Shown piece by piece: positions 8,253-64,000 of a stretch of DNA of 64,000 bases. The notes beneath the pieces are model-generated. The model worked only from the letters and a program-made list of their open reading frames with translations. It searched no databases and was not told the DNA's origin. Both the position numbers and the translations under genes were made by a program. Source of the stretch: Candidatus Krumholzibacteriota bacterium (GTDB lineage Bacteria > Krumholzibacteriota > Krumholzibacteriia > JAJRXK01); NCBI GenBank assembly GCA_963764625.1, contig CAVXTH010000009.1:352001-416000 (forward strand), in the 5' to 3' direction. Position 1 is the first letter of the stretch. Every line of letters starts with the position of its first letter.

Positions 8253-8319
8253 TCCAAGTTTTGCCGCTCAGATGTTGTATCATGGGGACTCGAGCGTTCC
8301 TTTGAGCTGGAGTCTCTTC

Positions 8320-18138: not shown

Positions 18139-18240
18139 GGACCCGTAGTTTCGTCGTCTCGCTCGTGCCCAGAGCTTCACGAGACTGCTCGAGGAAGTAC
18201 GGAGTATGGCACACCCGACCGGAGGTTGGCCAGCCAGCGA

Positions 18241-34868: not shown

Positions 34869-36344
34869 ATGTACGAGGTTCCCACCGTCAGAGTCCAGGC
34901 ACTCAATGCGATTTCCCCGCGTCCGGATGGCGAGTTCGTTCTCTACTGGATGGTCGCCCAGCGACGCCTGGGATGGAACTTCGCCTTGCAGAGGGCCGTC
35001 GCGCTCGCCGCGGAGATGCGGCGGCCCCTGCTCATCCTCGAAGCTCTTCGCGTGGAGTACCCGTGGGCTTCCGACCGGCACCATGCCTTCATCTTGGAGG
35101 GCATGCTCGAGCACGACGGACGTCTGCGAAACAGTGGAATCGGCTACTACGCCTATCTCGAGAGCGCGCCCAGAGCCGGCTCGGGTCTGCTGGCCGCCCT
35201 GGCCGCGCGCGCGGTCTGTGTCGTGACCGATGACCATCCCGGGTTCTTCTTTCCTCGCATGCGCCAGCGCGCGGCGCAAACGATCGGGTGCGCCATGGAG
35301 GCGGTGGATTCCTGCGGAATCATGCCCGTAGCGCAGCCTCAGCGCGCCTTCCCGAGCGCGCATTCCTTTCGGCGTCATCTCCAGCGTGAACTGCACGGGC
35401 CCTTGCGCGAGTTTCCAGAGCCGGACCCGCTCCGCGGCGCCAACGGTCTTCGCTTTGCCTCGGATCTGAAGGAGATCGAGGCTCGCTGGCCCCGTCTGCG
35501 GCCCGGAGACTCCATTGGTTCGCTGCTCGCGTCACTTCCCATCGACCATGCCGTGACCCGGATCAAAGGCCGCTGGGGCGGGAGCAAAGCCGCGCGCTGC
35601 GCGCTCGAGGAGTTTGTCGAAACGAGGCTCGCTGGCTACGCGCGCGATCACAATCAGCCCCAGCAGCACGCGAGCAGCGAGCTCTCGGCCCATCTGCACT
35701 ACGGGCACATCTCGAGTCACGAGGTCTTTACTGCACTAGCCGAGCGCGAAGGGTGGAACTTCTCCCGCGTTTGTGGAGACTGCACTGGAGCCAGGAGAGG
35801 TTGGTGGGGCATGTCGGAGGGCGCGGAGGCGTTCCTCGATCAACTCCTCAGCTGGAGAGAGCTCGGTTTCAACGCGGCTCGCTTCCTCGAAGACTACCGC
35901 GAGTTCGACTCGCTTCCCAGCTGGGCGAAAACCACTCTATTCGAACACGAGAATGACCCGCGGCCCCATACCTATTCCCTGGAAGAATTCGAGGAAGCGC
36001 GCACACACGATCCCCTCTGGAATGCGGCGCAGACCCAACTCGTGCGCGAAGGAGTGATTCACAACTACTTGCGGATGCTCTGGGGTAAGAAGATCCTTCA
36101 CTGGAGCGCCAGCCCCCGCGAAGCACTCGCGACGATGGTGCAACTCAACAACAAGTATGCTCTAGATGGGCGTGATCCGAATTCCTACAGCGGCATCTTC
36201 TGGGTGCTGGGCCGTTACGACCGGGCCTGGGGACCACAGCGGCCAGTCTTCGGCAAGATCCGCTACATGAGCTGCGAGAACACAGCCCGGAAACTCCGGG
36301 TGAAAGGATACGTCGAACGCCATGGGAGCCAGACTTTGGTGTAA
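34869..36344 (+). CDS. Deoxyribodipyrimidine photolyase (class II CPD-like)
   Basis: 'VLYWM...R..WNFAL', 'SELSAHLHYGHIS', 'THDPLWNAAQ', 'YLRMLWGKK', 'DGRDPNSY'. Confidence 0.9.
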   Translation: MYEVPTVRVQALNAISPRPDGEFVLYWMVAQRRLGWNFALQRAVALAAEMRRPLLILEALRVEYPWASDRHHAFILEGMLEHDGRLRNSGIGYYAYLESAPRAGSGLLAALAARAVCVVTDDHPGFFFPRMRQRAAQTIGCAMEAVDSCGIMPVAQPQRAFPSAHSFRRHLQRELHGPLREFPEPDPLRGANGLRFASDLKEIEARWPRLRPGDSIGSLLASLPIDHAVTRIKGRWGGSKAARCALEEFVETRLAGYARDHNQPQQHASSELSAHLHYGHISSHEVFTALAEREGWNFSRVCGDCTGARRGWWGMSEGAEAFLDQLLSWRELGFNAARFLEDYREFDSLPSWAKTTLFEHENDPRPHTYSLEEFEEARTHDPLWNAAQTQLVREGVIHNYLRMLWGKKILHWSASPREALATMVQLNNKYALDGRDPNSYSGIFWVLGRYDRAWGPQRPVFGKIRYMSCENTARKLRVKGYVERHGSQTLV

Positions 36345-36356
36345 GGGAGTGCCTCT

Positions 36357-36929
36357 GTGACTCGGTACGGGAGAGTTTTCCTCGCCCTCGGCTTGCTGTC
36401 CACCGCGGCCGGTGGCGCCCGTGGAGGGTCGAGCCCCACGCTGGCTCCCCGAGTGGTGGATCACCTGGATCTGCTGCGCTATGTGGGACGGTGGTACGAG
36501 ATCGCCCGGATTCCCAACCGATTCCAAAGGGACTGTGCGTCGAACACCACGGCGGACTACCGACGGTTGGCTGACGATCGCATCGAGGTGACGAACCGCT
36601 GCCGCACCCGCGACGGCAAGTTCCTCACGGCCCGCGGGGTGGCGCGGATCGCCAGCGGAGACAACCCGGCGCGGCTCGAGGTGAGCTTCGTGAAGATTCT
36701 GGGCCAGCAGCTTTTTTGGGGGGACTACTGGGTGATCGGTTTGGGAGAGAACTACGAGTGGGCCATCGTTGGCCACCCGCAGCGCAAGTACGGCTGGATC
36801 CTCGCGAGCAAACCCCGGCTCGACGAGACGACTCTGCGCTTGATCCGCGCGCAGTTGATCGACCAGGGCTACGACCCCAATCGGTTCGTCACCACGCCGC
36901 AAAGTCAGGATGCGGAGCCAGGCTACTGA
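36357..36929 (+). CDS. blc: Lipocalin (Blc family)
   Basis: 'DLLRYVGRWYEIAR', 'GDYWVI', 'YGWILA'; signal peptide. Confidence 0.9.
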   Translation: MTRYGRVFLALGLLSTAAGGARGGSSPTLAPRVVDHLDLLRYVGRWYEIARIPNRFQRDCASNTTADYRRLADDRIEVTNRCRTRDGKFLTARGVARIASGDNPARLEVSFVKILGQQLFWGDYWVIGLGENYEWAIVGHPQRKYGWILASKPRLDETTLRLIRAQLIDQGYDPNRFVTTPQSQDAEPGY

Positions 36930-36977: not shown

Positions 36978-39863
36978 TCAGCGAATCAGCGTGAGCTTCT
37001 GCACCATGGTGCGGTCGGCCCCGCCTCCTCGCACCTGCAGACGCGCGAAGTACTCGCCGTTCGCCAGCGGGCGGCCTCTCTCGTCGCGACCATCGAACTG
37101 AACCAAGTGCTGGCCGGCTTCCATGGAAGTGCGCACGACCTGGCGCACCCGCCGTCCTCTCACGTCGTAGAGATCGATCTGCACGCCAGCCCTGCGAGGG
37201 AGCGCGAACGAGAATACGGTCGAACCACCGGTAGGATTGGGTCGTGGCGGCGCGAAGGAAAGTAGGGTGGGCAAGCCCGAATCCCCCACCGCGGTGACGA
37301 CAGCGCTCTCACACTGCCAGCAATTCGTACGTCCCGGATCTCCGCCCACCATGGGCCATTTTCGATCGGGGAGCGATTGCGGGGGATGGTTCACGTCCCA
37401 TACCGAGAGCAAGCTGTCACTGAGCACCACGATCTCGTTGCTCGAATCATCGTCGATGTCACCGACGGCCGAACCGAGCTGTGTGGGCCGGGCGATGGGT
37501 TTGGGCCAGCCTCCCACGCCAAAGCCGGTGTTGGTCCAGGCCCAGCCTTGTTGCATGCTCGAGTTGGCGATGTTCGCGCTCGCGGTGTTGATGAGCGATT
37601 CGATCACCGGATCGGAGTAGGTCCCCCCAGCCCCGCCGGAGGTGCCTTTCGGATAGAGGCTCTGCAGCGCGCCTCCGTTGAGCGCCTCGTACATCTGTCC
37701 CGCCGCGCAGAAGGTGATCTCCGGAGGGGACGTTCCGATGAGTTGTCCCGCCGCGACGCGGGTCACGAAGCTGCCGGTACCCGTGTCGATACTCCAGGGG
37801 TTGTTACCCGCGCTGTCATACGCGTGGACGAGACCGTTTACGGTGGGGACCAGGATCTCGCGCATGCCATCCAGATCCATGTCTGCGAGGGTCACCGGCC
37901 CCGAAATGGAATACAGGGTGACGTCGTGAGACCACCCGATCGATTGGGTGTCGGGATGGAGCAGGTACAGCCAATCGTTCGCCTCCACCACCAGATCCGG
38001 CTGATCGTCTCCGTCCACGTCGCCGATCGAGGGCGGCTCGGTGATCACGCGGGAAAGCGGGATCTTGGCCTGGAGAACTCCGCGATAGTTCAGCACGTAG
38101 ACCCCGTTGCCACTGCAGGCCACGATCGAGCGCGGGTAGGGGGCCAGGACCGCCCCGATCGCCACGTAGGTATCTGCGTGCATGAGGGTGTCGTAGGGGA
38201 AACCGGGCATGACGACTCCATTGGGATCGAAGGCCCAGATCTGGCCGTCTGTGTTGCCCACCACGATGGCCGGCAGCCCGTCTCCGTTCAGGTCGCCAAT
38301 GGCCACCTGACCGGCATCCGGGATGTCTCCCACGTCCTGCGGCCACCCCCCGTATTCCAGACCCGAGGGATTCAAGGCGTGTACCCTGCCCTGGGTGTCG
38401 CTGTAGACGATTGCGTGGGGAGCATTCGTCCCCAGATACGCGATCGCGGGCGGCGTCGCCGGCACGTGGTCGAGGGCGACCGGGAAGCCGGGCTCCAGAT
38501 TGGGATGGCCGGGATCGGTGAACCAGGTGGCGTCGAACCTCAGAGTCTGATCCGAATCCAGGGGCCCGCAGAGGTACACCGAGGGAACCCACGCCACCGC
38601 GAACGCCCCGGGTAGCATCGGGTCCGCGGTCAGTCCAGGGGCGGCCACTCCCCAGATCGGGTCGGCGGGTGAGAAACACAAGACCGGCCCCGGTACGCCG
38701 GTCGAAGGGTCGACGTCGAGGACGATCGGCTGCTCTTCACAGCTCAGCGAGTTGCCGTTGTTGTCGTAGCGGCCGGTGACGTACAGATGGGCCCCGGTGG
38801 GATCGAAGAAGAGGCGGAACATTTCCTCCTCTTCGGGGAAGCTCGTGGTGTCGGCGGTGGCCCAGGTCGAACCTCCGTCCGCGCTGTGCTTCAAGAGTGC
38901 ATTGCCGCCAAAGCTGTTGCGCAGATAGAGAATGTACACGTCGGATCCGCTGGGCGACGCTGCAATGCCGTTCATCCAGGAATCGACGGTGCCCGTGGAC
39001 AGGGTGTGGGCGACCTGGGATGACCAATCGGACAGCCCCGAGTTCGCGTAATTGGCGGCGTACATGGTCCGGGCCGAATTGTTGATGCAGCTGGGGCCAA
39101 TACAATTGTCGCCGTAGTCGAAGGCGAGCTGAACGCGATCGTTGCCGCCAAACGCGATGTGAGGATTGAGATAGTAGTCAGGGCTCGCGACCGAGTCAAA
39201 GGTCAGGGCATAACTCGCCTCCCAGCTATCTCCCTTGTCCGTCGATCGGGCAAAGTAGAGGTTTTGTTGATTGCTGGCCGGAGTTCCCGTCGCCACCGCG
39301 TAGAGGTAGTAGTCGCCGTACGAGGAGACGTCGGAGGCAAGGTCCCCATCATTGAAGTCGTACCCGCTGAGGGCGAAGGGCGTGGTCACGGTCCAGACCG
39401 GGGTGGAGCTGTTGGGGCTCGTCCACGCGTGGCGAACGACCGAATCGCTGCCGTCGGCGAACGTGACCACATAGAGTATGTGCAGCCGTACTTGCGTTCC
39501 CTCGGCCAGGAGGAAGCGAAGCTGCGCCGTCCGTTCGCCGCTCGCCTTGGGCAGGGTGGACCAGAGTTCCCAGGTGGTGCCGTTGTCGAGGCTCCGGTAG
39601 ATGGTGGTGGTGCGTTCGATGGTGGGGGTGTAGGCGATGTTGGAGAGGGCGCAGAAGAGTTTCCCGTCGCTCGTCTTGACGAGTTCGGGATCGCCGACAT
39701 TGCCACTGAGATCCTGCACGATGATGGCGTCATCGCCCCCCACCAGTGGCGCGAAGGCGAAGGCCGCGGTGACGGTGAACCACAGCGTGAGGAAGAGAGC
39801 TACCAGGAAGCTGAGGCGCGAAGTGGGCGAAGCGGGAGAGAGAACGTAAGGGCGTGAGACCAT
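36978..39863 (-). CDS. Large secreted protein: BNR/Asp-box propeller, FG-GAP propeller and FlgD-Ig/T9SS-type C-terminal domain
   Basis: Asp-boxes 'SLDNGTTW', 'STDKGDSW', 'SADGGSTW'; 'GDLNGDG', 'GDVDGDD', 'ADMDLDG', 'GDIDDDS'; C-terminal 'PNP...YDVRGRRV...FDGRDERG...GEYF...KLTLIR'. Confidence 0.85.
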   Translation of the reverse strand: MVSRPYVLSPASPTSRLSFLVALFLTLWFTVTAAFAFAPLVGGDDAIIVQDLSGNVGDPELVKTSDGKLFCALSNIAYTPTIERTTTIYRSLDNGTTWELWSTLPKASGERTAQLRFLLAEGTQVRLHILYVVTFADGSDSVVRHAWTSPNSSTPVWTVTTPFALSGYDFNDGDLASDVSSYGDYYLYAVATGTPASNQQNLYFARSTDKGDSWEASYALTFDSVASPDYYLNPHIAFGGNDRVQLAFDYGDNCIGPSCINNSARTMYAANYANSGLSDWSSQVAHTLSTGTVDSWMNGIAASPSGSDVYILYLRNSFGGNALLKHSADGGSTWATADTTSFPEEEEMFRLFFDPTGAHLYVTGRYDNNGNSLSCEEQPIVLDVDPSTGVPGPVLCFSPADPIWGVAAPGLTADPMLPGAFAVAWVPSVYLCGPLDSDQTLRFDATWFTDPGHPNLEPGFPVALDHVPATPPAIAYLGTNAPHAIVYSDTQGRVHALNPSGLEYGGWPQDVGDIPDAGQVAIGDLNGDGLPAIVVGNTDGQIWAFDPNGVVMPGFPYDTLMHADTYVAIGAVLAPYPRSIVACSGNGVYVLNYRGVLQAKIPLSRVITEPPSIGDVDGDDQPDLVVEANDWLYLLHPDTQSIGWSHDVTLYSISGPVTLADMDLDGMREILVPTVNGLVHAYDSAGNNPWSIDTGTGSFVTRVAAGQLIGTSPPEITFCAAGQMYEALNGGALQSLYPKGTSGGAGGTYSDPVIESLINTASANIANSSMQQGWAWTNTGFGVGGWPKPIARPTQLGSAVGDIDDDSSNEIVVLSDSLLSVWDVNHPPQSLPDRKWPMVGGDPGRTNCWQCESAVVTAVGDSGLPTLLSFAPPRPNPTGGSTVFSFALPRRAGVQIDLYDVRGRRVRQVVRTSMEAGQHLVQFDGRDERGRPLANGEYFARLQVRGGGADRTMVQKLTLIR

Positions 39864-40050
39864 GGGATCCCTCCGTATACGGGCCAGCACCGAGACGGGT
39901 CCGCCCGAGCCCTAGGGCTCCGGCGGCGGAGGGGGATCCTCATCGGGGTGTGGCTTCCAGTATGCCACGGCCTCGAGGTGTTACGCCAGCGCGCGGAGCG
40001 TTCCCGCCCCGCGCGCTGGTCTCGGCCTCATCTCGTGGTTTGCTCGCGTC

Positions 40051-41994: not shown

Positions 41995-42999
41995 TCAGAG
42001 GGGCAGAAGCTCGGCCGCGCGCTGAAAGAGGGTGGGGAGGCCTCCGGTATGCCAGAACACCAGCGTCTGGTCGCGGTGAAACACGCCCTTTCGGATCAGA
42101 GCGATCAATCCTTTCATGGCGCGTCCGGTATACACCGGATCGAGCGCCACCCCTTCCATGCTGGCCATAAGGCGCAGGGCCTCGCGCTCTCCTTCTCCGA
42201 TGACGCCGTAGCCAGCGCCGTGAAACTCGCCCGAATAGTGGATGTCCCTCGAGCTGAGACTCGAATCACTTCCCAACAGCTCGGCCGCGCCGTGTGCGAT
42301 GGAAACTATCTGTTGCTTGAACTCCTCGGGGCTTCCCTCCTCCGGATCGATTCCGATGCCGAAGGGTGTCACCCCGGGCGCGTACCAGTGCAGACCCTGC
42401 GCCAGTCCGGCATGCGTTCCACCCGAACTGGAGGCGAAGACCACGTGGCTGGGGTGTTCGTCCTTCTCCTCCAACTGCCGCGCCAGCTCGCGGGCCGCGT
42501 TCACGAATCCCAGGGCACCGAGGGGATTCGATCCGCCGTAGGGAACCAGGTAGGGATGCGCACCTTCGGCTTTCAGGCGGGCTGCGATCGCGGGAATGTC
42601 CTCGCCTTTGCGATGCTCTCCGCAGAAATGCGGCGTCGCACCACAGAGTAGATCGAGAAGGAGATTTCCCTCGGGGACGGCCGGCGCCTTACCGGCCAAC
42701 ACCAGGTGACAGGCCAGACCACAGACCGCCGCGGCCGCCGCGGTTTGACGGCTGTGGTTGGATTGCTGGGCTCCTCCGGTGATGACGGTGTCACAGCCGC
42801 GCGCCAAGGCCTCGGCCAGCAGGAACTCGAGCTTGCGAACTTTGTTTCCCCCGAAGGCGAGACCGATCAGATCGTCGCGCTTGATCAAGAGGCGCGGCCC
42901 CCCGAGCATCTGGCTCAGACGTGGCGCTTCGACCAAGGGAGTGGGGAGCTGGGCGAAGCACTGGCGGGGAATCGCATCCCAGCCGGCCTTGGAACTCAT
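41995..42999 (-). CDS. dcyD: D-cysteine desulfhydrase (ACC deaminase family)
   Basis: 'KRDDL..GGNKVRKLEF', 'QSNH', 'DPVYTG' and 'HTGG' (Thr/Thr rather than the Glu/Leu of ACC deaminase). Confidence 0.88.
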   Translation of the reverse strand: MSSKAGWDAIPRQCFAQLPTPLVEAPRLSQMLGGPRLLIKRDDLIGLAFGGNKVRKLEFLLAEALARGCDTVITGGAQQSNHSRQTAAAAAVCGLACHLVLAGKAPAVPEGNLLLDLLCGATPHFCGEHRKGEDIPAIAARLKAEGAHPYLVPYGGSNPLGALGFVNAARELARQLEEKDEHPSHVVFASSSGGTHAGLAQGLHWYAPGVTPFGIGIDPEEGSPEEFKQQIVSIAHGAAELLGSDSSLSSRDIHYSGEFHGAGYGVIGEGEREALRLMASMEGVALDPVYTGRAMKGLIALIRKGVFHRDQTLVFWHTGGLPTLFQRAAELLPL

Positions 43000-43168: not shown

Positions 43169-44698
43169 ATGTTCCTACGGCCCTCTCATCCCACTTCTTG
43201 TAGTCCATGGCTTGCATTCTGCGCTCTCGTTCTCGGGTGTGCGGTTTCCGTCCCTTCGGTGGCCGTCGCGGACCCGGTCGGCGACGACGAGGTCAAATAC
43301 CCTCACGGGGAATTCCGGGAAGCCTGCGAGCTCTGCCATAGCGCCAACGACTGGCAGCAGGCGCGGATCTCCAAGGACTTCGATCACGGCGCGTACGGAT
43401 TTCCCCTGGAGGGAGCGCACGCGAAGACCGACTGCATACTCTGCCACAAGACCCTCGAGTTCAAGGCGATGAACACAGACTGTTCGTCCTGTCACCAGGA
43501 TGCCCATCAGGGTGAATTTGGGAGCGACTGTTCCGAGTGTCACGGAACCCGGACCTTTCTCGATCGAAGCGAACAGATTTCGAATCACCGGCAGACCCAG
43601 TTCCCACTGAGTGGAGTTCACTCGACTCTGGATTGCCAGCAGTGCCACCGGGCCCAGAGCGGTGGATTGCAGTTGGTGAACACTCCCACCGACTGCTATG
43701 CGTGCCACGAGAGCGAGTTCGTTTCGACCCAGTCCCCCAGTCACACCCAAGGGGGATTCTCCACCGAATGTACCGATTGTCACGGCACCGTGAGTTGGAG
43801 CGGCGGCAACCTGAATGGCAGTCACGATTTCTTTCCTCTGCGGGGAGGCCACGCCGGGCTCGAGTGCGCGCAGTGTCACACCACGGGACAGTTCGCCGCG
43901 ATCGACCGGAACTGCGTGGCTTGCCACCAGGCCGATTACGACGGAACGACCGACCCGGTCCACACCTCGGCCGGATTCTCGACCGAGTGTGAAACGTGTC
44001 ACAGCATCAACGGCTGGGACGGAGCTTCGTTCGATCACTCACAGACTTCGTTTCCGCTCACCGGCGCGCACCGGGCGGTGGCGTGCCTCGATTGTCATAC
44101 CGGGAGCCAGTTCTCGGGAACACGCTCGGAGTGTGATGCCTGTCACCAAGCCGATTTCGAGGCCGCGGTCGACCCCAATCACGTCGCGGGGGGCTTCCCG
44201 GTGGAGTGTGAGACCTGTCACGACACCAATGCTTGGGAGGGCGCGAGCTTCGACCACTCGGCGACCTCCTTCCCTCTGACCGGAGCCCACGCCACGACCG
44301 ATTGCGCGCAGTGCCACGTGAACAACGTCTTCACGGGAACCAGCACTCGGTGCTACGACTGTCACCGCAGCGACTACGACGCGACGAACGATCCGGCTCA
44401 CGCGGGAGCGGGATTCGGAACCGATTGTGAGATCTGCCACACTACCTCAACCTGGTCGGGGGCCCAGTTCGATCACGACGGTGAGTTCTTCCCGATCTAC
44501 TCCGGAACCCATCGCGGCCGGTGGGACACCTGCCAGGAATGTCACACCAATGCTTCGAATTACGCCGTTTTCGATTGCCTGAGCTGCCATCCGCACGACG
44601 ACAAGGCAAACACCGACTCGCAGCACCGAGGGCGCAATGGCTACGTCTACGAGAGCAATGCCTGCTACGACTGCCATCCCCGAGGACGCAGTGAATGA
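43169..44698 (+). CDS. Multiheme c-type cytochrome, 19 CxxCH motifs in tandem triheme repeats
   Basis: Signal peptide ending AVA; 19 CxxCH counted; repeat unit FDH..T.FPL.G.H...CxxCH...CxxCH...P.H..GF...CxxCH...W. Confidence 0.95.
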   Translation: MFLRPSHPTSCSPWLAFCALVLGCAVSVPSVAVADPVGDDEVKYPHGEFREACELCHSANDWQQARISKDFDHGAYGFPLEGAHAKTDCILCHKTLEFKAMNTDCSSCHQDAHQGEFGSDCSECHGTRTFLDRSEQISNHRQTQFPLSGVHSTLDCQQCHRAQSGGLQLVNTPTDCYACHESEFVSTQSPSHTQGGFSTECTDCHGTVSWSGGNLNGSHDFFPLRGGHAGLECAQCHTTGQFAAIDRNCVACHQADYDGTTDPVHTSAGFSTECETCHSINGWDGASFDHSQTSFPLTGAHRAVACLDCHTGSQFSGTRSECDACHQADFEAAVDPNHVAGGFPVECETCHDTNAWEGASFDHSATSFPLTGAHATTDCAQCHVNNVFTGTSTRCYDCHRSDYDATNDPAHAGAGFGTDCEICHTTSTWSGAQFDHDGEFFPIYSGTHRGRWDTCQECHTNASNYAVFDCLSCHPHDDKANTDSQHRGRNGYVYESNACYDCHPRGRSE

Positions 44699-46324
44699 TC
44701 CGAGTTCTTCTCATCACCCTGTGTTTGCTCTCCGCCGGCACCGCAAGCGCGGAAACGGTATCGTCCGCGAAGGATGATGCCAGTGCCCAGAGCCTTTCCT
44801 CTCGCGCGACCGCGGCCATCACCTATCTGACCACCTCTACGGTCTACGTGAGTGCCGGCCGCAAAAACAAGCTGAGCGAGGGATCGCGCCTCTCGGTGAT
44901 CCGTGCGGACAGTGTCGTGGGGACGATCGAGGTGATCAACCTCTCGTCGGATCGCGCCTCCTGCAAGATCCTGGAATCCAGCGGGCCCTTCTTGGTGGGC
45001 GACCAGGTGGGCTGGAACGCGGAAGACGAAGGTGGGGTGCCAACGCCGCTTCAGCTCGCGCCACCGGGAAGCACGAGGCTCGAGTCGGGTCGAAGCTCGA
45101 CTGGAAGCACGCAAAGCTGGCTGCGCGAGAACGGGATTCGTGGCCGGATCAGCGGACGCTATCTCACGGTACGGGACCGATCGGGTACGGGTCAGAATCT
45201 CTCGCAGCCCGCTCTCGACGCACGGCTCGAGGGTCGACAGATCGGGGGATCGGACTGGGACCTGTCCTTGGACGTGCGAGCCAGACGCACCTTTCGTGAG
45301 GAGGCCAACGGCACGAACTCGCAGGAAGGTCGCTCGCGGGTGTATCGGGCGAATCTCTCCTGGAAACCACTGGACTCACGGGTTTCGTTGATGATGGGTC
45401 GCCAGTATTCACCCGAACTCTCGTCCCTCGGCATTTTCGACGGGGCATCCTTCGTGCTGCATTTCTCGCAGTGGAGCATGGGGCTCTTGTCCGGAAGCCA
45501 GCCCGATCCCGTCAGCTTCGGCTACTCAGGAGAGATCCGCGAACACGGTCTCTTCGTGCAGAGATACTCGGCCCAGGGCAGCAAACGCAGATTGAGCGTC
45601 ACCATGGGCGCGATCGGTTCCTACGTGCACGGGGAGATCAACCGCGAGTACTTGGCGTTCCAGACCCACTACACTTCCGGCGCCGTATCTGCCTATCTGA
45701 GCCAAGACGTCGACTACAATCGTGGCTGGAAACGTGAGATGGAGGGGCAAACGTTTCTCCCTGAACAACACCTATGCAAGTCTGCGGGTCCGTGCCGCCG
45801 AGCAAACGACGCTTGCGGCCGGGTTCGACAACCGGCGCAACGTTCGACTCTACCGCGACTACATTTCGCCGGAAGTCGAGTTCGACGATACCTACCGGCA
45901 GGGAGCATGGACGGGAGTCACGCAACGATTTGCCAAGAGGTATCGACTCGGAGCGAGAGTCAAGCGGTCGACCGGAGGCACTTCGGGAAACACCATTACC
46001 TACACTCTGAATGGATCGGTTCAGTGGCGCGTGAACTTGCAGGGGCGGACTTCGCGCTTCGACAACGATCTGCTCATCGGTTGGATCCACTCGGGATCGG
46101 CCAGCGTGCAAGTGAGTCCGAAGATGAGGCTGGAGATCGGAGGGGGGTTGCGCACGCAGACGGGCAAGAGCGTCCCTACCGGAGGCGATCGCCTCAGTTG
46201 GACGAACGCTTTGGCCGACTACTCGCTGGGACGGCAGTGGTACGCATCGCTCTCGTTCGAGCGCTCACACGAAGGTGATCAGGCCAACGACCAGATCTTC
46301 TCGATGTTGAGCTATCGCTTCTGA
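44695..46324 (+). CDS. Outer-membrane beta-barrel protein (putative cytochrome-associated porin), +1 frameshift at ~45744-45756
   Basis: ATGA overlap with the cytochrome gene, signal peptide, amphipathic strands. The 3' frame continues 'FSLNNTYASLRVR' to a terminal 'LSYRF'. Confidence 0.8.
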
Positions 46325-46393: not shown

Positions 46394-47632
46394 TCACTCG
46401 TCCGCCATCAGGAAGCGAAGCAGCTTGGGGAGTCGCTGTGCCCAGTCGCGCTCTCGATGACGGTGCCCTTCCGCTTCGATACTGAGCAAGTCCTTTTCCG
46501 GGATCATCCCGTCTTCGCGCAGAATCCGATCCATGGTGCGCAGGGTGGCGATGGAGTCCTCCACCTCGTCATGGTTCTTGTCCTGCGAGCCTGAAATTTC
46601 GCGGGTTCCCATGTCCTGGTAGAAGCGTCGTGTCCGCGGGCGACCGGCTTCACGGGCAAATTGGAGGATGCGCCCTTGCGCCCACCAGTACGAAGGGGAC
46701 ACCGCCGCCACTCCGCCGCCAAAGACATCGCCGTGAGTGAAGGCCGCGTAGGCCGAGATCAACCCCCCCAGGGAAGATCCCGCCATGTAGGTGTGCGCGG
46801 CCCCGGGGAGAGTGCGAAAGTGGCGGTCGATGGAGGGCTTGAGCGTGTCGGCGACAGCGCGCAGGTAGCGCTCGCCTCCTCCGCCGGAATTCCATTCGAG
46901 GTCACGCCACGGGGTGTATTCCTCGATGCGCGCGGGGCCCCCGTTCTCGATGCCCACCACGATGAGTGGCGGGATCTCGCCGGCTCCGATCATGCGCTCG
47001 AGCGTTTCGTCCACCTGCCATTCTCCCGCGTACGAGCGCTCCTTGTCGAAGAGGTTCTGTCCATCGTGCATGTAGAGGACAGGGTAGCGCCGATCACCGT
47101 CTTCATAGCCGGGCGGCAAATAGACCCAGCAGCGACGGCCGTGCAGAAATGAAGTCTCCACGAAGGCCTCGACGTTCCCTGTGATCGTCGAGAGATCGGT
47201 ATCCGCCCACCGGGCCACGCTCAGCTCGTAGCTCGTGCCCTCCTGCGGTCGCAGTCGCCGCGCGTCGAGGGGAGAGCCATCGGCTCGCACTTCCACCGCA
47301 TCCCAAGTGCCACGACAGAAGAGGAAATGCAGGAGCAATCCGGCGGGGGAGGCGAGCGTCACTTGCCATCTTCCGTCTGGGCGTGGCTGAAGGCGGAACT
47401 TCGGGTTGTCCGGGCGCCACCCGTCGTGATCGGTGGAGAGGAAGACCGTCTCGCCGTTGGGAATGGTGTCCGGGAGTGCCACGACGAGGGTGAAGTGGAC
47501 CAACGCCTCGCCTTCTCGTGGCGCGGCGCGGACGGTCCCCGCGACGCACGCAAGAGCGAGCAGAGCCCAGAGGACCGCGGATGGGATGCGCCCGGCAAGG
47601 GAGAAGGAGTGCGGGGGCCAAAGAAGGCGCAA
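46394..47632 (-). CDS. Secreted alpha/beta-hydrolase (putative esterase) with N-terminal CBM20-like domain
   Basis: 'YPVLYMHDGQNLF', nucleophile elbow 'AGSSLGG', N-terminal 'W.P....L......W' and 'RGTWDAVE'. Confidence 0.85.
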   Translation of the reverse strand: MRLLWPPHSFSLAGRIPSAVLWALLALACVAGTVRAAPREGEALVHFTLVVALPDTIPNGETVFLSTDHDGWRPDNPKFRLQPRPDGRWQVTLASPAGLLLHFLFCRGTWDAVEVRADGSPLDARRLRPQEGTSYELSVARWADTDLSTITGNVEAFVETSFLHGRRCWVYLPPGYEDGDRRYPVLYMHDGQNLFDKERSYAGEWQVDETLERMIGAGEIPPLIVVGIENGGPARIEEYTPWRDLEWNSGGGGERYLRAVADTLKPSIDRHFRTLPGAAHTYMAGSSLGGLISAYAAFTHGDVFGGGVAAVSPSYWWAQGRILQFAREAGRPRTRRFYQDMGTREISGSQDKNHDEVEDSIATLRTMDRILREDGMIPEKDLLSIEAEGHRHRERDWAQRLPKLLRFLMADE

Positions 47633-47752: not shown

Positions 47753-48448
47753 ATGATCTCAATTCGCGATTTGGAGTTTCACTATCCGCGGGGCGATTTC
47801 CGCCTGAGGATCCCTGAGTTCCAAGTGGAGAGCGGCGAATCAGTGGCCGTCATCGGTCCCAGCGGCACCGGCAAGACCACTCTCTTGAACCTCATCGGTG
47901 GAATCGTGATCGCATCCTTGGGGAGAGTCGTGAACCGCGGCACCGATTTGAGCGTCCTGAACGATGCGCAGAGAAGAACGTTTCGTATTCAGAACATCGG
48001 TCTCGTCTTTCAAGAGTTCGAACTCCTAGAGTACCTGACCGTTCTGGACAACATCCTGCTTCCGTATCGGATCCATCCGGCGCTGCAACTGAGTTCATTG
48101 GTAGAGCGGCGGGCCAGGGAACTCGCCGAGGAAGTGGGAATTTCCCACGATCTGCGCCGCTACGTGGACCAGCTTTCCCAGGGCGAAAGGCAGCGCGTGG
48201 CCATCTGCCGGGCTCTCTTGCCCGGTCCCAGCTTGATTCTCGCCGACGAGCCCACGGGCAACCTGGATCCGCGCAACAAGGGCCGTGTCCTGGACATTCT
48301 CTTCGCGTACGTGAAACGCGAGGAAGCCACTCTGATCACGGTGACGCACGATCACGATTTGCTCGGACGCTTCGAGAGAGTCGTCGATTTCAGCCGCTTT
48401 CACGCGGAGATGGACCCCCCTCTCAGTTCGGGGGATCCGGCAGCATGA
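47753..48448 (+). CDS. ABC ATP-binding protein (LolD/MacB type)
   Basis: 'GPSGTGKTT', '[10 protein letters not shown]', '[10 protein letters not shown]', 'ADEPTGNLD'. Confidence 0.92.
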
Positions 48449-49626
48449 AAGAGGTGCTCTATCTCGCCTGGCGTTACTTGAGCTACCACCGCGTCAAGAC
48501 CGTTATCCTCACGACATCGATCACGCTCATCCTCTTTCTCCCGGTGGGGCTGCGCGTCTTGGCGAACCAGGGCCGGTCCGAGCTCATTGCGCGCGCGCGC
48601 GTCACCCCGCTCTTGTTAGGGGGAAAGGGCAGCCCTTTGGAGCTGACCCTGAACTCCCTCTACTTCGAATCGGACGTGCCGGACGCAATGCGCTACGGCG
48701 AAATCGCGCGGGTGGATTCCTCGGGCCTGGCCCGGCCGATTCCGCTCTACACGCGGTTTCGCTGTCGGGGCTTTCCCATCGTGGGAACGACTCTCGATTA
48801 TTTCGAGTGCCGTGGTTTGCGTCTCTCGAAGGGGCGCACTCTGGCGCTTCTGGGAGAGTGCGTGCTGGGCGCGGAAGCGGCCAGGAAACTCGGCGTCTCC
48901 ATCGGTGACCCTGTGGTTTCCTCGACGGAAAACGTGTTCGATCTCGCCGGAGTCTATCCCTTGAAAATGAGCGTCGTGGGCATTTTGCGGCGCAGCTACA
49001 CCCCCGACGACCGGGCCATCTTCACCGATCTCAAGACTACATGGGTCATCGCGGGTATTGGTCACGGCCACCAGGACCTCAGCCAGCCCGGCGCCGGATC
49101 CCAGATCTTGAAGAAGGAGGGAAACACGGTCATCGCGAACTCCTCCGTGAAGCAGTACAACGAGGTCACCCGCGAAAACCTGGCGTCCTTCCATTTCCAC
49201 GGTAAGCCGGAGGACTTTCCTGTCACGGCTGCGATCATCTTTCCCAAGGACGAGAAGGCTTCCACCTTGCTTCGCGGGCGCTACCTCTCTCCGCAGGAGA
49301 GAGTGCAACTCGTCAGCCCGGTCGAAGTCATGAACGGTTTGCTCGCCACCATCTTCACGCTGCAGAGTTACCTGATCGCGGCGGTTCTCGTCATTGGGCT
49401 CGCCACTCTGGCGACGGCAATCCTCGTGTTCATGCTCTCGTTGCGACTCCGCCGGCGCGAGATCGCCACCATGATGAAGATCGGCGGTTCGAGGGGCCGC
49501 GTGTTCGCTGTGCTCGTATCGGAGATCGCGATGGTCTTGGCGGTGAGCGTGCTCTTGGCCACCGGACTGACCCTCGTGACGGCGCACTTTGGCTCGGCGA
49601 TCATTCGGAGCCTGATTCTGTCCTGA
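48445..49626 (+). CDS. FtsX/MacB-type ABC permease with His motifs
   Basis: 'LAWRYL', large periplasmic loop with 'GHGH' and 'FHFH', 'RRREIATM..IG'; four TMs. Confidence 0.88.
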   Translation: MKEVLYLAWRYLSYHRVKTVILTTSITLILFLPVGLRVLANQGRSELIARARVTPLLLGGKGSPLELTLNSLYFESDVPDAMRYGEIARVDSSGLARPIPLYTRFRCRGFPIVGTTLDYFECRGLRLSKGRTLALLGECVLGAEAARKLGVSIGDPVVSSTENVFDLAGVYPLKMSVVGILRRSYTPDDRAIFTDLKTTWVIAGIGHGHQDLSQPGAGSQILKKEGNTVIANSSVKQYNEVTRENLASFHFHGKPEDFPVTAAIIFPKDEKASTLLRGRYLSPQERVQLVSPVEVMNGLLATIFTLQSYLIAAVLVIGLATLATAILVFMLSLRLRRREIATMMKIGGSRGRVFAVLVSEIAMVLAVSVLLATGLTLVTAHFGSAIIRSLILS

Positions 49627-49643
49627 AGCCGGAGGAATTCGCC

Positions 49644-50612
49644 ATGTCCAGGTCTAGGATGTTCAGCGCTTTAGGCGGACGCCGCGTTCTGTCGGGAGTG
49701 GCTCTGCTGTTGGCGGCGCTTCTCAGCCAGGCGTGCGGGCAGGAAGGCGCCGCCCAACACGAAGAGACGCGGGCAAGGCGAGCCATCCGCCGACCGACGG
49801 TGTACACCGTCAACTACCCCCTGGACTACTTCGCGCGGCGTATCGGCGGAGAGAGCGTCGAGGTGGTGTTTCCCGCTCCCGCAGAGCTCGACCCGGCCTT
49901 TTGGCTGCCCTCACCCGAGGAGATCCTGAGCTTCCAGAAAGCCGATCTCATCCTCTTGAACGGGGCGGACTACGCCAAGTGGGTGAAGCTGGCGACCCTG
50001 CCTCCGGAGAAACTGGTCGACACCTCGGCCGCTTTTCAGGACAGCTTCATCGTGATTCAAAACGCGATGACTCACAGCCATGGGCCTTCGGGGAAGCACT
50101 CTCACGCGGGTACGGTCTTCACCACCTGGATCGACTTCACGCAGGCGGGCGCGCAGGCCCAAGCCGTCTACGAGGCCTTTCTCGCAGGTGGACTGGCGGA
50201 CAGTTTGACCCTCCGGCGCAACTTCGAGGCGCTGCGCGAAGACCTTCGGGCCCTGGACGATTCGCTTCTGGCCCTCACGCGCGGACAGAGGAAGCTGCCG
50301 CTCCTCGCGTCGCACCCCATCTACCAGTACTTCGCGCGTCGCTACGCCCCGAATTTGGTCAGCGTGACCTGGGAACCCGGCGAGGCGCCCAGCGAGGCGC
50401 AGTGGGAGGACCTGAGCAGTCTGCAAAAGGAACACGGGGCGGCATGGATGATCTGGGAAGGGGAGCCTCTGCCCGCAAGCAGGAAGAGGCTCTCGCAGAT
50501 GGGCATCCACAGCGTGGTCTTTGACCCCTGCGCGAACCGTCCCCCAACGGGAGACTTTCTGGACATCATGCGGCAGAACCTACAGGATCTGCGGGCGATC
50601 TACCGGAACTGA
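49644..50612 (+). CDS. Metal ABC substrate-binding lipoprotein (ZnuA/TroA cluster A-I)
   Basis: Lipobox 'SQAC', 'DPAFWLPSP', 'ADLILLNG', His loop 'THSHGPSGKHSHAG', 'YQYFARRY'. Confidence 0.88.
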   Translation: MSRSRMFSALGGRRVLSGVALLLAALLSQACGQEGAAQHEETRARRAIRRPTVYTVNYPLDYFARRIGGESVEVVFPAPAELDPAFWLPSPEEILSFQKADLILLNGADYAKWVKLATLPPEKLVDTSAAFQDSFIVIQNAMTHSHGPSGKHSHAGTVFTTWIDFTQAGAQAQAVYEAFLAGGLADSLTLRRNFEALREDLRALDDSLLALTRGQRKLPLLASHPIYQYFARRYAPNLVSVTWEPGEAPSEAQWEDLSSLQKEHGAAWMIWEGEPLPASRKRLSQMGIHSVVFDPCANRPPTGDFLDIMRQNLQDLRAIYRN

Positions 50613-52208: not shown

Positions 52209-53939
52209 CTAGGCGCCGCGACCGATTCCCACCTGGTGCAAGAGGCCCCGGGGACCCTGGCGAAACAGCGAACCCAGCAGCAGCGCGACGAAGAGCACGA
52301 CTCCCGCTTTCTGCCACCAATGATAGCTGTACGCCTGGCTGCCCAGTTCGGGCACGCTTGCGGCGAGTCCTGGCACCAAGTTCGCCAGCCACCCCAGCAG
52401 GATGCTGCTCACCGGAACCGTGAGCATGAGGATCCACACCGCCTGCCTGCGGTGTACTCCCTTGATGGCGCCGTAGGTCGTGACGTTCGTGGCGGGACCG
52501 GTGAGCAGAAAGGCCAAAACGGCGCCCACCGAAGCCCCCTTGGCTAGGAAGATCGTGGCGATGGGCGTGGCGCCCGAAGCACATACGTAGAAAGGAGTCG
52601 CGATCAGGCCGAAGATGGGCACCTGGATCAGGTCGGGGATCAGGGCGATCAACCCGTTTCGCAGAATCGGTTCGATGAGGCCGGCCACCAGAATCCCGAC
52701 CAACACCCAGGGACCCAGATCGTCGAAGAGCTCGCGCGCGCCAAAATCGAGAGCTCCTTTGAGGTCGTTGCGGGGGGGCAAGGTGGCGGGATCTTCGGAT
52801 TCGGCAGCTTCGGAGGAGGGCATGAGTCTTCCCGCCACGAGCCCGGCGACCAAGGCCACGAGAAACGCCGCGATGAGCCGTACGATGGTGACGGGGGTGC
52901 CCAACAGGGGGATGGAAATGAGAATCGAGTCGAATCCCAATTCTGGAGTCGCCACCAGGAACGCGGTCGCGGCGGCCGCGGGAACTCCCCGCGCGTGCAG
53001 GCTACGGTAGAGTGGTACCACTCCGCACGAACAGATGGGCAGAGGAATTCCGAAGAGGATTCCCTTGAGCGCGCTCGAGGCCTCGGTGCTTCCCTTCAAC
53101 AGCTGTTTCAGTGAGCGCGCGGGAACCATGGTCATGAAACCCGCGCCGACAAAGCCCAGCACGACCGCGTACGAACTCTCCATGAAGAGATAGCCCATGT
53201 TGGAGAAGCCGCGCTGGAGCACCGGGGGAACCGTGTCGGGCAGGAGAAAGAAGATCAAGAGCGCCAGCACGGTGCCACTCGCTGCCCAAGCGGGGCTGAC
53301 CCGGGCTTCACCGTGTTCGGACTGATGACGATGATCCATGACCACGTGGAGGAGTCCACCGGCGAGCAAAGAGAAAATGATTCCCGAGACCGGTCCCACG
53401 CTCAGAGGGAGCAGGAAGCTGCTCAGAGCGTGCCCGACGAAAGTGGCGCCCGCGATGGCGGCCAGGATGGCCAGCGCGACCTTCGAGCCCAATTGCGGCC
53501 TGACCGACCACCAGATCAACAACCCCACCGGCACGCGATGGAGCAGAATCGCCAGAGGTAGGCTCCAGCCCTCGGTGAGATGCTGGTGCATGCCCTGTTG
53601 ATTGGCGGCCAGCGCCGCTCCGTCGAGCGAGGCATGCAGCACGAGTCCGATGACCGCCAGCCAGAGGATCGAGGAGGATTCGTCGGACTCGTGCCGGTGC
53701 AGCTTCCGCTCGGCGTAGAGCGGGAGAAATGCCCCGATCGCCGCGAAGAGAATGCACCAGGCGCCGATGCTGTCTCGCGCGTAGGGTAGAAGATGGAGAA
53801 GCGCCAAGCCCCCGACCATCACCAGGATGAAGCCGTCGAGCAGCGCATGGAGTTGGGAACGCCGCTGCAGGACACCCGCGATGAGAGGGCCGAAGGACAG
53901 GGCCACGGCCGAGAGAATCAGTGCACTGTGTGCGTCCAT
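52209..53939 (-). CDS. Metal permease: ZIP-like N-terminus fused to DUF318/ArsP (SO_0444-like) domain
   Basis: 'LHASLDG', 'LHRVPVGL', His-rich loops; 'GIPLPICSCGVVP', 'AFLVATP', 'YVCASGATP', 'LLTGPATN'. Confidence 0.82.
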   Translation of the reverse strand: MDAHSALILSAVALSFGPLIAGVLQRRSQLHALLDGFILVMVGGLALLHLLPYARDSIGAWCILFAAIGAFLPLYAERKLHRHESDESSSILWLAVIGLVLHASLDGAALAANQQGMHQHLTEGWSLPLAILLHRVPVGLLIWWSVRPQLGSKVALAILAAIAGATFVGHALSSFLLPLSVGPVSGIIFSLLAGGLLHVVMDHRHQSEHGEARVSPAWAASGTVLALLIFFLLPDTVPPVLQRGFSNMGYLFMESSYAVVLGFVGAGFMTMVPARSLKQLLKGSTEASSALKGILFGIPLPICSCGVVPLYRSLHARGVPAAAATAFLVATPELGFDSILISIPLLGTPVTIVRLIAAFLVALVAGLVAGRLMPSSEAAESEDPATLPPRNDLKGALDFGARELFDDLGPWVLVGILVAGLIEPILRNGLIALIPDLIQVPIFGLIATPFYVCASGATPIATIFLAKGASVGAVLAFLLTGPATNVTTYGAIKGVHRRQAVWILMLTVPVSSILLGWLANLVPGLAASVPELGSQAYSYHWWQKAGVVLFVALLLGSLFRQGPRGLLHQVGIGRGA

Positions 53940-63404: not shown

Positions 63405-64000
63405 ATGATGGACACTGCCCTCTCGGTTCACCGGTTCCACTTCGCCTTCACCGTTACCTACCACTATCTCTTTCCCCAGCTCACCATGGGATTGGCGTTG
63501 CTCATCTTTCTCATGAAGAGTCTGGCACTCAAGACCGGAAACGAAGAGTGGAATCGCGCCGCGCGTTTTTGGATTCGACTTTTCGCCATCAACTTCGCCA
63601 TGGGAGTGGTGACCGGAATTCCTCTGGAATTCCAATTTGGCACCAACTGGTCGCGATTCTCGGTTTTCGCCGGCGGTGTCATTGGACAGAGTCTCGCCAT
63701 GGAAGGGGTCTTCGCCTTCTTCCTCGAGTCGAGCTTTCTCGGAGTTCTACTCTTCGGCGAAAAGAAGTTCGGGCCGCGAGGACATTGGGTCGCTTCGCTG
63801 CTGGTCTTCGTCGGTTCGTGGCTCTCGGGTTATTTCATCGTCATCACCGACGCGTGGATGCAGTATCCACAGGGCTATCAGTTGCTAAAGAGCGGCGGCG
63901 TCGCCCTCACCAGTTTGGGACAATTCCTCCTGAATCCCTGGGGGCTCTGGCAGTTCCTCCACACCATGATGGGGACGACGGTCACCGCCGCAGTGTTCGT
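63405..64000 (+). CDS. cydA: Cytochrome bd ubiquinol oxidase subunit I (3' truncated by the window edge)
   Basis: Translated by hand: MMDTALSVHRFHFAFTVTYHYLFPQLTMG...FAMGVVTGIPLEFQFGTNW...AMEGVFAFFLES. Confidence 0.95.
   Translation, partial: MMDTALSVHRFHFAFTVTYHYLFPQLTMGLALLIFLMKSLALKTGNEEWNRAARFWIRLFAINFAMGVVTGIPLEFQFGTNWSRFSVFAGGVIGQSLAMEGVFAFFLESSFLGVLLFGEKKFGPRGHWVASLLVFVGSWLSGYFIVITDAWMQYPQGYQLLKSGGVALTSLGQFLLNPWGLWQFLHTMMGTTVTAAVF

Follow-up and report, generated by a model that had tools for sequence, protein, structure and literature searches.

The systems described most closely to the element reported here are the PCC3-type clusters, defined by a porin, a periplasmic cytochrome with a median of 21 hemes, a repeat-rich extracellular cytochrome with a median of 34 hemes, and a membrane protein carrying WX3HX13H and SGXXG motifs (passages of He et al. 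2017, PMC5566968). There, the WxxxHx13H signature belongs to the membrane protein of PCC3 and PCC4, and the PCC3 cluster of Leptothrix cholodnii is given cytochromes of 24 and 22 hemes and a porin of 22 segments. In Burkholderiales, the order is a 24-heme cytochrome, a 49-heme cytochrome and a porin of 20-24 segments, with indels of CxxCH domains in the larger cytochrome, and an OmbB model once picked up a PCC3-type porin (passages of Arbour et al. 2020, PMC7399161). Long linear models accompany PCC3 cytochromes of 21/24/27 and of 10-35 hemes in the relevant part of Hoover et al. (2023, PMC9900912), while a passage of a 2025 preprint (10.1101/2025.02.27.639646) describes PCC3 function as untested. 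Here we analyze a two-gene unit, a 19-heme c-type cytochrome followed by a beta-barrel gene, at positions 43169-46324 of a stretch of 64,000 nucleotides (64 kb; hereafter, the window) from contig CAVXTH010000009.1 of a Candidatus Krumholzibacteriota bacterium. We interpret the pair as the outer-membrane module of a PCC3-like trans-envelope electron conduit, a reading that leans on structural models and to which we assign a probability of about 0.68.

A porin beside large cytochromes is not new, and uncharacterised look-alike clusters are already present in surveys. Specifically, in the MHCscan table of Garber et al. (2024, PMC11475568), passages list 20-heme, 16-heme and 542-amino-acid heme-less genes in a row in Ignavibacterium album (NC_017464.1_794-796) and adjacent 37- and 23-heme genes in Paludibaculum fermentans; the FeGenie label DFE_0449 is common there to a 24-heme L. 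ochracea protein and I. album proteins, and look-alike clusters are labelled DFE_0449/0448. In metagenome-assembled genomes from karst ghost-rock, 11 'group 1' clusters combine a large cytochrome with a porin of ~20 strands and frequently also encode a ferredoxin-NADP reductase (2026, passages of PMC13264449). The likeness of the I. album, P. fermentans and ghost-rock clusters to our unit comes from lengths, heme counts and gene order alone. Additionally, parts of other sources report undescribed cytochromes of >100 hemes from Bacteroidota/Saprospiraceae (PMC11495043), unnamed Bacteroidetes porin-cytochrome clusters, and iron-cycling potential in Krumholzibacteria (PMC6344600, PMC8258643, 10.1101/2020.09.22.307553). 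None of the passages on catalogued clusters gives the heme-count rule, the barrel family or the orientation described below, and our literature search, outside of which most subscription journals lay, found no paper defining any of the three.

The cytochrome-barrel pair

The features of the unit and its boundaries are as follows.

43169..44698, + strand: c-type cytochrome, 19 hemes, 509 amino acids (one N-terminal heme plus six triheme blocks); open reading frame, motif counts and the 99%-identical protein P0119
43169..43270, + strand: probable Sec signal peptide, residues 1-34; read by eye from the sequence
43373..43702, + strand: N-terminal module of the cytochrome, residues 69-178, hemes 2-6, predicted to lie in the barrel lumen; complex model
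43811..44464, + strand: three canonical 73-amino-acid triheme repeats, residues 215-432; CxxCH spacing of 16/25/32, repeat alignment and 3n+1 heme counts
44465..44695, + strand: conserved C-terminal triheme cap, residues 433-509; alignment, with 59% identity to the Emticicia counterpart
44695..44698, + strand: ATGA stop/start overlap coupling both genes; ATG at 44695-44697, TGA at 44696-44698
44695..46324, + strand: outer-membrane beta-barrel gene, 542 amino acids if intact, with a +1 frameshift here; intact homologues P0002/P0003 and model
44806..45015, + strand: FlgT_C/TsaP-like beta domain of the barrel protein, residues 38-107, presumed periplasmic; model and weak profile matches
45136..46321, + strand: predicted 22-strand plug-less beta-barrel, residues 148-541, with a Phe end; DSSP of the model, strand amphipathicity and fold searches
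45751..45760, + strand: frameshift, a single additional base within or beside a short T run; frame comparison with P0002 and third-position GC content (GC3)
41995..42999, - strand: left boundary, outside the unit; PLP-dependent PALP-family enzyme, divergent
46394..47632, - strand: right boundary, outside the unit; esterase-family protein, convergent

The cytochrome has exactly 19 CxxCH motifs, at residues 53, 89, 105, 121, 156, 176, 201, 233, 249, 274, 306, 322, 347, 379, 395, 420, 455, 470 and 499, and only two other stop-to-stop frames of >60 amino acids in the window bear a motif, one each. An earlier note, made from the letters of this DNA, had read the 19 motifs, the ATGA overlap, flanking genes on the opposite strand, and a frameshifted partner that after repair is a 542-amino-acid, strand-rich, Phe-ended protein; all of these held, the partner matching the intact proteins P0002 and P0003 and, once modelled, yielding the beta-barrel that the note had predicted. 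The mature protein has 20 His outside of the motifs to serve its 19 hemes, and 25 residues per heme; the hemes are probably all bis-His ligated, as expected of an electron wire rather than of an enzyme. The chain is laid out as one N-terminal heme, two special triheme blocks, the three canonical repeats and the triheme cap. A lipobox-like pattern was present in 1 of 55 leader regions of relatives, such that the family does not appear lipoprotein-like, although the window copy has VLGC, through which it may be lipidated. P0119 differs from the window copy at 3 of 479 positions.

Partner cytochromes of this barrel obey a modular rule. In 52 of the 53 complete loci from GTDB genomes the barrel-adjacent cytochrome has 3n+1 hemes when CX2-4CH motifs are counted (47/53 by CxxCH alone), over a range of 13-58 hemes, one frameshift fragment excepted. 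Two lists of 120 database matches each, one of similar-length and one of longer proteins, gave comparable results for the subsets having both end caps: strict counts were 3n+1 in 85 of 91 similar-length homologues and 72 of 84 longer ones, with a maximum of 100 hemes. Longer homologues with the same caps (P0372-P0491), reaching 100 hemes in ~2,400 amino acids, came from Bacteroidota, Ignavibacteria, Acidobacteriota and Eisenbacteria; Saprospiraceae and Lewinellaceae were likewise among the named long homologues, and no Proteobacteria occurred among the organism-named rows of this longer-homologue search. A sequence search of the Protein Data Bank (PDB) with the cytochrome gave no match at E<=0.01, and an Atlas search returned generic c7/c3 clusters with low recognition. 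The cytochrome model, folded without hemes, had a mean predicted local distance difference test score (pLDDT) of 76.9 and a predicted template modelling score (pTM) of 0.42, leaving its overall shape unfixed. In fold searches with it, Foldseek had no match at E<=0.001 and a second search reached a best Z of 2.1; because of the low pTM and the scarcity of secondary structure in the model, these blanks do not show that the cytochrome has a new fold.

The partner protein is, on its model, a plug-less, 22-strand outer-membrane barrel. AlphaFold2, given a 96-sequence alignment led by P0002, returned a mean pLDDT of 87.8 and a pTM of 0.72, with the small beta domain at residues 38-107, a low-confidence linker, and 22 strands over residues 148-541 as assigned by DSSP. 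Most strands have alternating hydrophobic faces, and the C-terminal residue is Phe in 100 of 106 homologues. The top structural matches were outer-membrane barrels, including FyuA (4epa, Z 18.4, root-mean-square deviation 4.9, 345 residues aligned) and, at rank 19, MtrB (6r2q_B, Z 15.3, deviation 5.2, 334 aligned). Foldseek placed usher pores on top with TM <0.5; usher and TonB-receptor ranks were dropped as functional evidence, these being generic barrel matches.

No Pfam or NCBIfam barrel family was found among 30 members scanned from the 96 aligned. The N-terminal beta domain matched FlgT_C weakly in 12 of the 30 at E<=0.1 (best 6e-4, under the curated cut-off), and the TsaP profile at E 5e-4. 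The family has 3,480, 2,042 and 983 representatives at E<=1e-3, 1e-10 and 1e-30, respectively, counted at 50% clustering, the first tier of which may hold unrelated barrels. All 30 clusters returned by an Atlas search with the barrel were hypothetical and shared no Pfam family. Of 14 longer or distant barrel proteins scanned, 4 carried an additional AMIN domain at the N-terminus (L003:9473-11040; P0261, P0262, P0265), and a look-alike Atlas cluster of 948 amino acids (score 0.89) bears one as well. AMIN domains are peptidoglycan anchors, and could play an anchoring role in these barrels.

As for the frameshift, the frame that begins at 44695 matches residues 1-354 of P0002 at 97.7% identity, and the +1 frame matches residues 351-542 at 95.3% before ending in YRF at 46321, with its stop at 46322-46324. 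The GC3 signal changes frame at the same spot as the homology break, and there are no stop codons on either side of it. P0002 and P0003 are intact 542-amino-acid proteins, the former ~98% identical to the window barrel: 13 of 541 positions differ, of which 8 are window-derived and 5 P0002-derived, most being conservative or common in the family. P0002 and P0119 list the same 16,161-base longest contig (that of the window is 1.13 Mb), so the two are probably neighbours in a near-identical strain. Given this intact, near-identical copy, the extra base at a short T run and the mostly conservative or common substitutions, an assembly error is probably a likelier source of the frameshift than a pseudogene.

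Predicted complex and orientation

The complex was folded without hemes from residues 36-542 of P0002 and residues 42-509 of the window cytochrome. It scored 0.66, versus 0.00 for the best of three controls. Of 157 solved complexes, 116 attain the mark applied to this score, as do 2 of 215 mismatched pairs, a calibration that is roughly applicable since our own alignments were used. Runs had at least 69% contact agreement and a partner pLDDT of at least 75. Contacts on the barrel fell on 16 of its 22 strands, mostly at alternating positions, and conservation was higher at contact positions than elsewhere in the barrel (0.65 vs 0.53, p 1e-4), although this measure is not independent of the model input. 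The model thus supports binding of the cytochrome to the barrel, as the earlier note had supposed. A charge match between a basic lumen and an acidic cytochrome was considered and rejected: the P0002 lumen has 20 K/R vs 14 D/E, but the family means are 18.9 and 17.9.

Confident contacts on the cytochrome were limited to residues 69-178, plus 208. The best contact pairs follow one another in sequence. Residues 118-129 meet strands 11, 21 and 22 in their periplasmic halves, residues 141-153 meet strands 1, 2 and 17-20 in their extracellular halves, and residue 171 contacts a long loop at 401 on the extracellular side. The C-terminal Phe of outer-membrane barrels faces the periplasm, and we took it as the anchor for orientation. 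This order of contacts along the strands, together with the periplasmic Phe, implies that the chain would run outward, with ~13 hemes outside of the cell. Hence, the proposal in the earlier note that 19 hemes cross both the periplasm and the outer membrane is not what the model predicts, in that hemes 2-6 are placed in or at the barrel and most of the others beyond it. An outward wire would agree with the variable length of this cytochrome and with the fixed length of the 20/23-heme cytochrome that relatives encode beside it.

Gene neighbourhood across genomes

A genome scan recovered 181 barrel loci, and all synteny counts below refer to the best 80 of these 181, which belong to Gemmatimonadota, Acidobacteriota, Krumholzibacteriota, Eisenbacteria, Latescibacterota and Binatota. 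In 72 of the 80, the gene immediately upstream of the barrel encodes the cytochrome, which bears out the coupling of the pair expected in the earlier note; of the remaining eight, six have too short an upstream sequence, one (L042) has an assembly gap and one (L050) is exceptional. Among the 41 loci with 10 kb upstream, 35 hold all five genes of a cluster in the fetched region, two miss only the oxidoreductase, three have the pair alone and one is L042. The usual order is a membrane protein, an Fe-S/FAD NAD(P)H oxidoreductase (TrxR/FNR-like with a 4Fe-4S domain), a 20/23-heme cytochrome, the 3n+1 cytochrome and the barrel. The second cytochrome, encoded in 37 of those 41 loci, has 20 or 23 hemes in 43 of 46 cases, and two WxxxHx13H motifs plus SGxxG were present in 42 of 42 neighbouring membrane proteins. 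The first three genes are at times inverted or moved (L054, L038, L056), while the cytochrome-barrel pair stays together. The pair would thus be the outer part of a PCC3-like five-gene cluster, an architecture that passages of PMC5566968 and PMC7399161 had already put in print and that the earlier note missed.

A cultured carrier is Emticicia oligotrophica DSM 17448, whose 100 kb plasmid pEMTOL02 has the same five genes in the same order after ccsA, a heme-attachment gene (L081:3414-15998), a sign that the set can be plasmid-borne. Its cytochromes have 23 and 40 hemes, its 538-amino-acid barrel scores 150 bits against the barrel profile, and both WxxxHx13H/SGxxG motifs are present in its membrane protein. 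Plasmid searches with barrel and cytochrome returned only Emticicia. Searches with the inner module returned porin-less proteobacterial clusters, which match the layout of those in Table S6 of He et al. (as given in part of PMC5566968). In two of these, on proteobacterial plasmids, a 2Fe-2S redox protein, a membrane protein, a short cytochrome and DUF1622 (L082:5073-8850; L083:3387-7171) sit near heavy-metal transport or copper-binding genes.

In the 64 kb window, neither the membrane protein, nor the oxidoreductase, nor the 20/23-heme cytochrome was found. In a FastTree reconstruction of the barrel, the window sequence was placed as sister to L003, a 19-heme two-gene unit from Krumholzibacteriota, within a Krumholzibacteriota/Latescibacterota group (support of 100 and 98), a position that points to a probably Krumholzibacteriota-like host. 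Descent of the two-gene units as a single lineage was rejected: with L001 and L047 left out, the tree needs five changes for six rows, and 92 of 500 shuffles were as low. The assemblies of two such units, L004 and L016, each have another locus that does include feeder genes, so these two units look like satellite copies; for L003 and L078, no second feeder-bearing locus occurred among the best 80 of 181.

Several further observations were made around the barrels of relatives and in the window. One cluster (L074:2022-11500) has two barrels and two barrel-adjacent cytochromes in tandem. Octaheme cytochrome genes lie downstream of the barrel in several loci (L005:4882-6285; L022:12116-13486; L052:14264-15553; L053:2217-3506; L067:19283-21088), two of which were read and look HAO-like. 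Within 8 kb downstream of the window pair are a ZnuA-type metal ABC transporter set (47753-50612, +) and an ArsP_1-family permease (52209-53939, -), neither of which is kept beside the pairs of relatives. A cytochrome bd oxidase subunit I that starts at the window end (63405-64000, +) suggests that the host is microaerobic or facultative. At 3-1676 there is a TonB-dependent receptor (Pfam match 3.6e-20), and at 34869-36929 (+) a 491-amino-acid open reading frame, photolyase-like by eye and without a Pfam match at 1e-5, precedes a lipocalin gene. Three secreted-looking proteins (8272-10320, 15961-18180 and 36978-39890) have a C-terminal FlgD Ig-like domain, an ending that is common in Krumholzibacteriota, Eisenbacteria and related phyla and that agrees with the barrel tree. 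A promoter and terminator scan gave nothing useful.

Competing explanations and comparison with known systems

As the outer-membrane module of a conduit, the pair would work as follows. The barrel would insert into the outer membrane, and the cytochrome, after export to the periplasm, would receive its 19 hemes. Its chain would thread outward with the C-terminus first and be arrested at the conserved N-terminal module, which is predicted to lodge in the lumen with ~1-2 hemes on the periplasmic side. Outside of the cell would then be the triheme repeats and the C-terminal cap, forming a wire that lengthens with the number of repeats, the interface being modelled and the rest of the wire extrapolated. 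In relatives, the inner path suggested by the cluster, of which the Fe-S/FAD NAD(P)H oxidoreductase would be a part, would lead from NAD(P)H or quinone through the membrane protein, a probable diheme-b protein, to the 20/23-heme wire, which is the likelier periplasm spanner, and from there over the 3n+1 wire to the outside; electrons may flow either way, and the partner out there may be a metal oxide, humics or another cell. In this genome, the feeder, or another periplasmic carrier, would have to come from outside of the window; because the feeder genes are not within it, extracellular electron transfer is something that we infer for this organism. A bolder version of the proposal, which we regard as tentative and somewhat less probable than not, is that of a single-chain, self-threading nanowire, in which the N-terminal hemes plug a narrow 22-strand barrel and 1 to ~30 identical triheme modules stand outside, the full cluster being fed from cytoplasmic NAD(P)H via the Fe-S flavoprotein, the diheme-b protein and a fixed periplasmic wire, and being widespread in heterotrophic phyla. 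At 8-10 A per heme, such a nanowire might reach from ~10 nm to near 100 nm, depending on repeat number.

Several points weigh against the conduit, or against parts of it. The model of the complex contains no hemes, the intact relative P0002 stands in it for the window barrel, which is itself frameshifted, and of the two cytochromes only the 3n+1 one was modelled as the lumen partner. Its score may also partly reflect model memory of solved porin-cytochrome complexes such as MtrAB; in sequence, the PDB has no relative of the cytochrome at the threshold given above, and the barrel profile finds no MtrB chain at E<=1. A cytochrome pTM of 0.42 does not establish a straight wire, and the barrel is ~40 A wide versus 48 A for MtrB, by a geometric estimate that uses assumed shear numbers. 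Moreover, the window contains no feeder or cytochrome-maturation genes, L050 has no cytochrome in its 819 upstream bases and is either a true or a mis-assembled exception, and experiments on any member of the family were not found in the literature.

The alternatives differ in where they place the wire and in what they have it do. That the structure is the one proposed but the job non-respiratory, whether as an NAD(P)H-driven surface reductase (akin to a split ferric reductase, for metal uptake, detoxification or redox disposal), an electron store or an export pore for released cytochrome, is unlikely in our judgement, and could coexist with a conduit. Many carriers are heterotrophs not known as metal respirers, the porin-less inner-module relatives lie near metal-handling genes on proteobacterial plasmids, and the top Foldseek matches were usher pores, which would fit an export role. 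Beside the Fe-S/FAD NAD(P)H oxidoreductase, the membrane protein has Hx13H pairs of the ferric-reductase type (passages of PMC5566968). Yet 13-100 hemes would be costly for assimilation, the usher matches are generic ones with TM <0.5, and the module that binds the barrel, a conserved one, is predicted to stay tightly bound instead of passing through. Another geometry, close to that of the earlier note, would have the 19-heme chain extend from near the inner membrane across the periplasm into the barrel, as a stand-alone, MtrAB-like two-component conduit. The non-lipoprotein leader of the family and the recurrence of two-gene units outside of a single clade (the five changes for six rows noted above) fit with it, as does the proposal that the periplasmic cytochromes of PCC3, with 21-27 hemes, span that compartment (passages of PMC9900912). 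We nevertheless consider it very improbable, since the modelled contacts run from the periplasmic strand ends (cytochrome residues about 115-129) to the extracellular ends and loops (141-171) with the long C-terminal part outside, 13-100 hemes are ill suited to a periplasm of fixed width, and relatives have a second cytochrome of fixed length.

There is also the question of whether the unit in this genome is a decaying remnant, with its feeders lost and a real frameshift in its barrel. The break at 45751-45760, the want of feeder genes in 64 kb, and the greater divergence of the barrel (13/541 differences from P0002) than of the cytochrome (3/479 from P0119) all point in that direction, but the intact 98% barrel and 99% cytochrome, probably neighbours in a near-identical strain, the lack of stops flanking the break, and substitutions that are mostly conservative or family-common make decay improbable. 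The closest GTDB relative, L003, is likewise a two-gene unit, and the L004 and L016 assemblies show that such units can accompany a second locus with feeders. The conduit claim is nonetheless weaker for this genome than for the family, given a barrel frameshifted in assembly and feeder genes that are outside of the window or missing.

What this locus adds is a barrel family that is defined, very large and without a name (E<=1e-10 gives 2,042 representatives; E<=1e-30, 983), a strict rule of 3n+1 modularity in the cytochrome partner, and a geometry open to testing, with a single chain passing through the membrane and itself serving as the external wire. If the conduit reading is right, it offers a structural model for PCC3-type systems, a role for the very large cytochromes of wastewater and soil bacteria, and a cultured organism, E. 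oligotrophica DSM 17448, in which the entire cluster is plasmid-borne. Were the nanowire version true as well, heterotrophic phyla that are not counted as electroactive would possess a full trans-envelope conduit; the giant orphan cytochromes of Bacteroidota and Acidobacteriota would then have an explanation, and there would be a hint of the way in which PCC3 is put together.

Among described systems, TonB-dependent receptors and fimbrial ushers are neighbours in structure only, with a large barrel that in the receptors likewise has 22 strands. Unlike these, the barrel here has no plug and very short loops, with identity of at most ~14% and no Pfam match, including none to TonB families in the 30 members. 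For the Geobacter OmaB-OmbB-OmcB and Ext systems, heme counts differ from those of the octa-/dodecaheme partners, and a single weak ExtJ match was found (1 of 30 members, E 0.005). With MtrAB, MtoAB and PioAB, the pair shares adjacent genes for an outer-membrane barrel and a multiheme c-type cytochrome that would lie inside of it. In contrast to decaheme MtrA, the window cytochrome has 19 hemes in triheme repeats and scores 29.8 bits against TIGR03508 (cut-off, 192.2); the barrel has 22 strands rather than the 26 of MtrB, with no MtrB/PioB-family Pfam or NCBIfam match in any of the 30 members at E<=0.1; and the roles of MtrA and MtrC would be combined in a single chain. Identity with Mtr is ruled out by the heme count, the sub-threshold TIGR03508 score and the lack of an MtrB-type match, such that the non-Mtr assignment of the earlier note stands, neither protein being recognized by Mtr family models.

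The comparison with PCC3 is closer, with differences of its own. Hosts here are Krumholzibacteriota, Gemmatimonadota, Acidobacteriota, Eisenbacteria and Bacteroidota, not Proteobacteria; the fixed cytochrome has 20/23 rather than 21/24/27 hemes; the barrel is ~540 amino acids long, whereas most PCC3 porins have more segments (up to 42); and an Fe-S/FAD oxidoreductase is usual. The model puts the counterpart of the 'extracellular' cytochrome in the lumen, not that of the periplasmic one. The window itself holds two genes, and neither the periplasmic cytochrome nor the WX3HX13H/SGXXG membrane protein is among them; with these two defining genes absent, and a likeness founded on layout and motifs rather than on reference sequences, the unit cannot be filed as PCC3. 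Relatives, however, share with PCC3 the WxxxHx13H membrane protein, a fixed-size cytochrome, a variable repeat-rich cytochrome and a barrel, at ~25 amino acids per heme. The window cytochrome has the heme-dense, variable-size, repeat-rich character of the extracellular PCC3 cytochrome (25 amino acids per heme, 73-amino-acid repeats, 13-100 hemes across the family), while its T/S/A/G share barely separates it from the fixed-size one (0.38 vs 0.35), and a 22-strand barrel beside a cytochrome is within the published range, as in the 22 segments of L. cholodnii. By layout, motifs and heme counts, the window unit would work like the outer half of PCC3.

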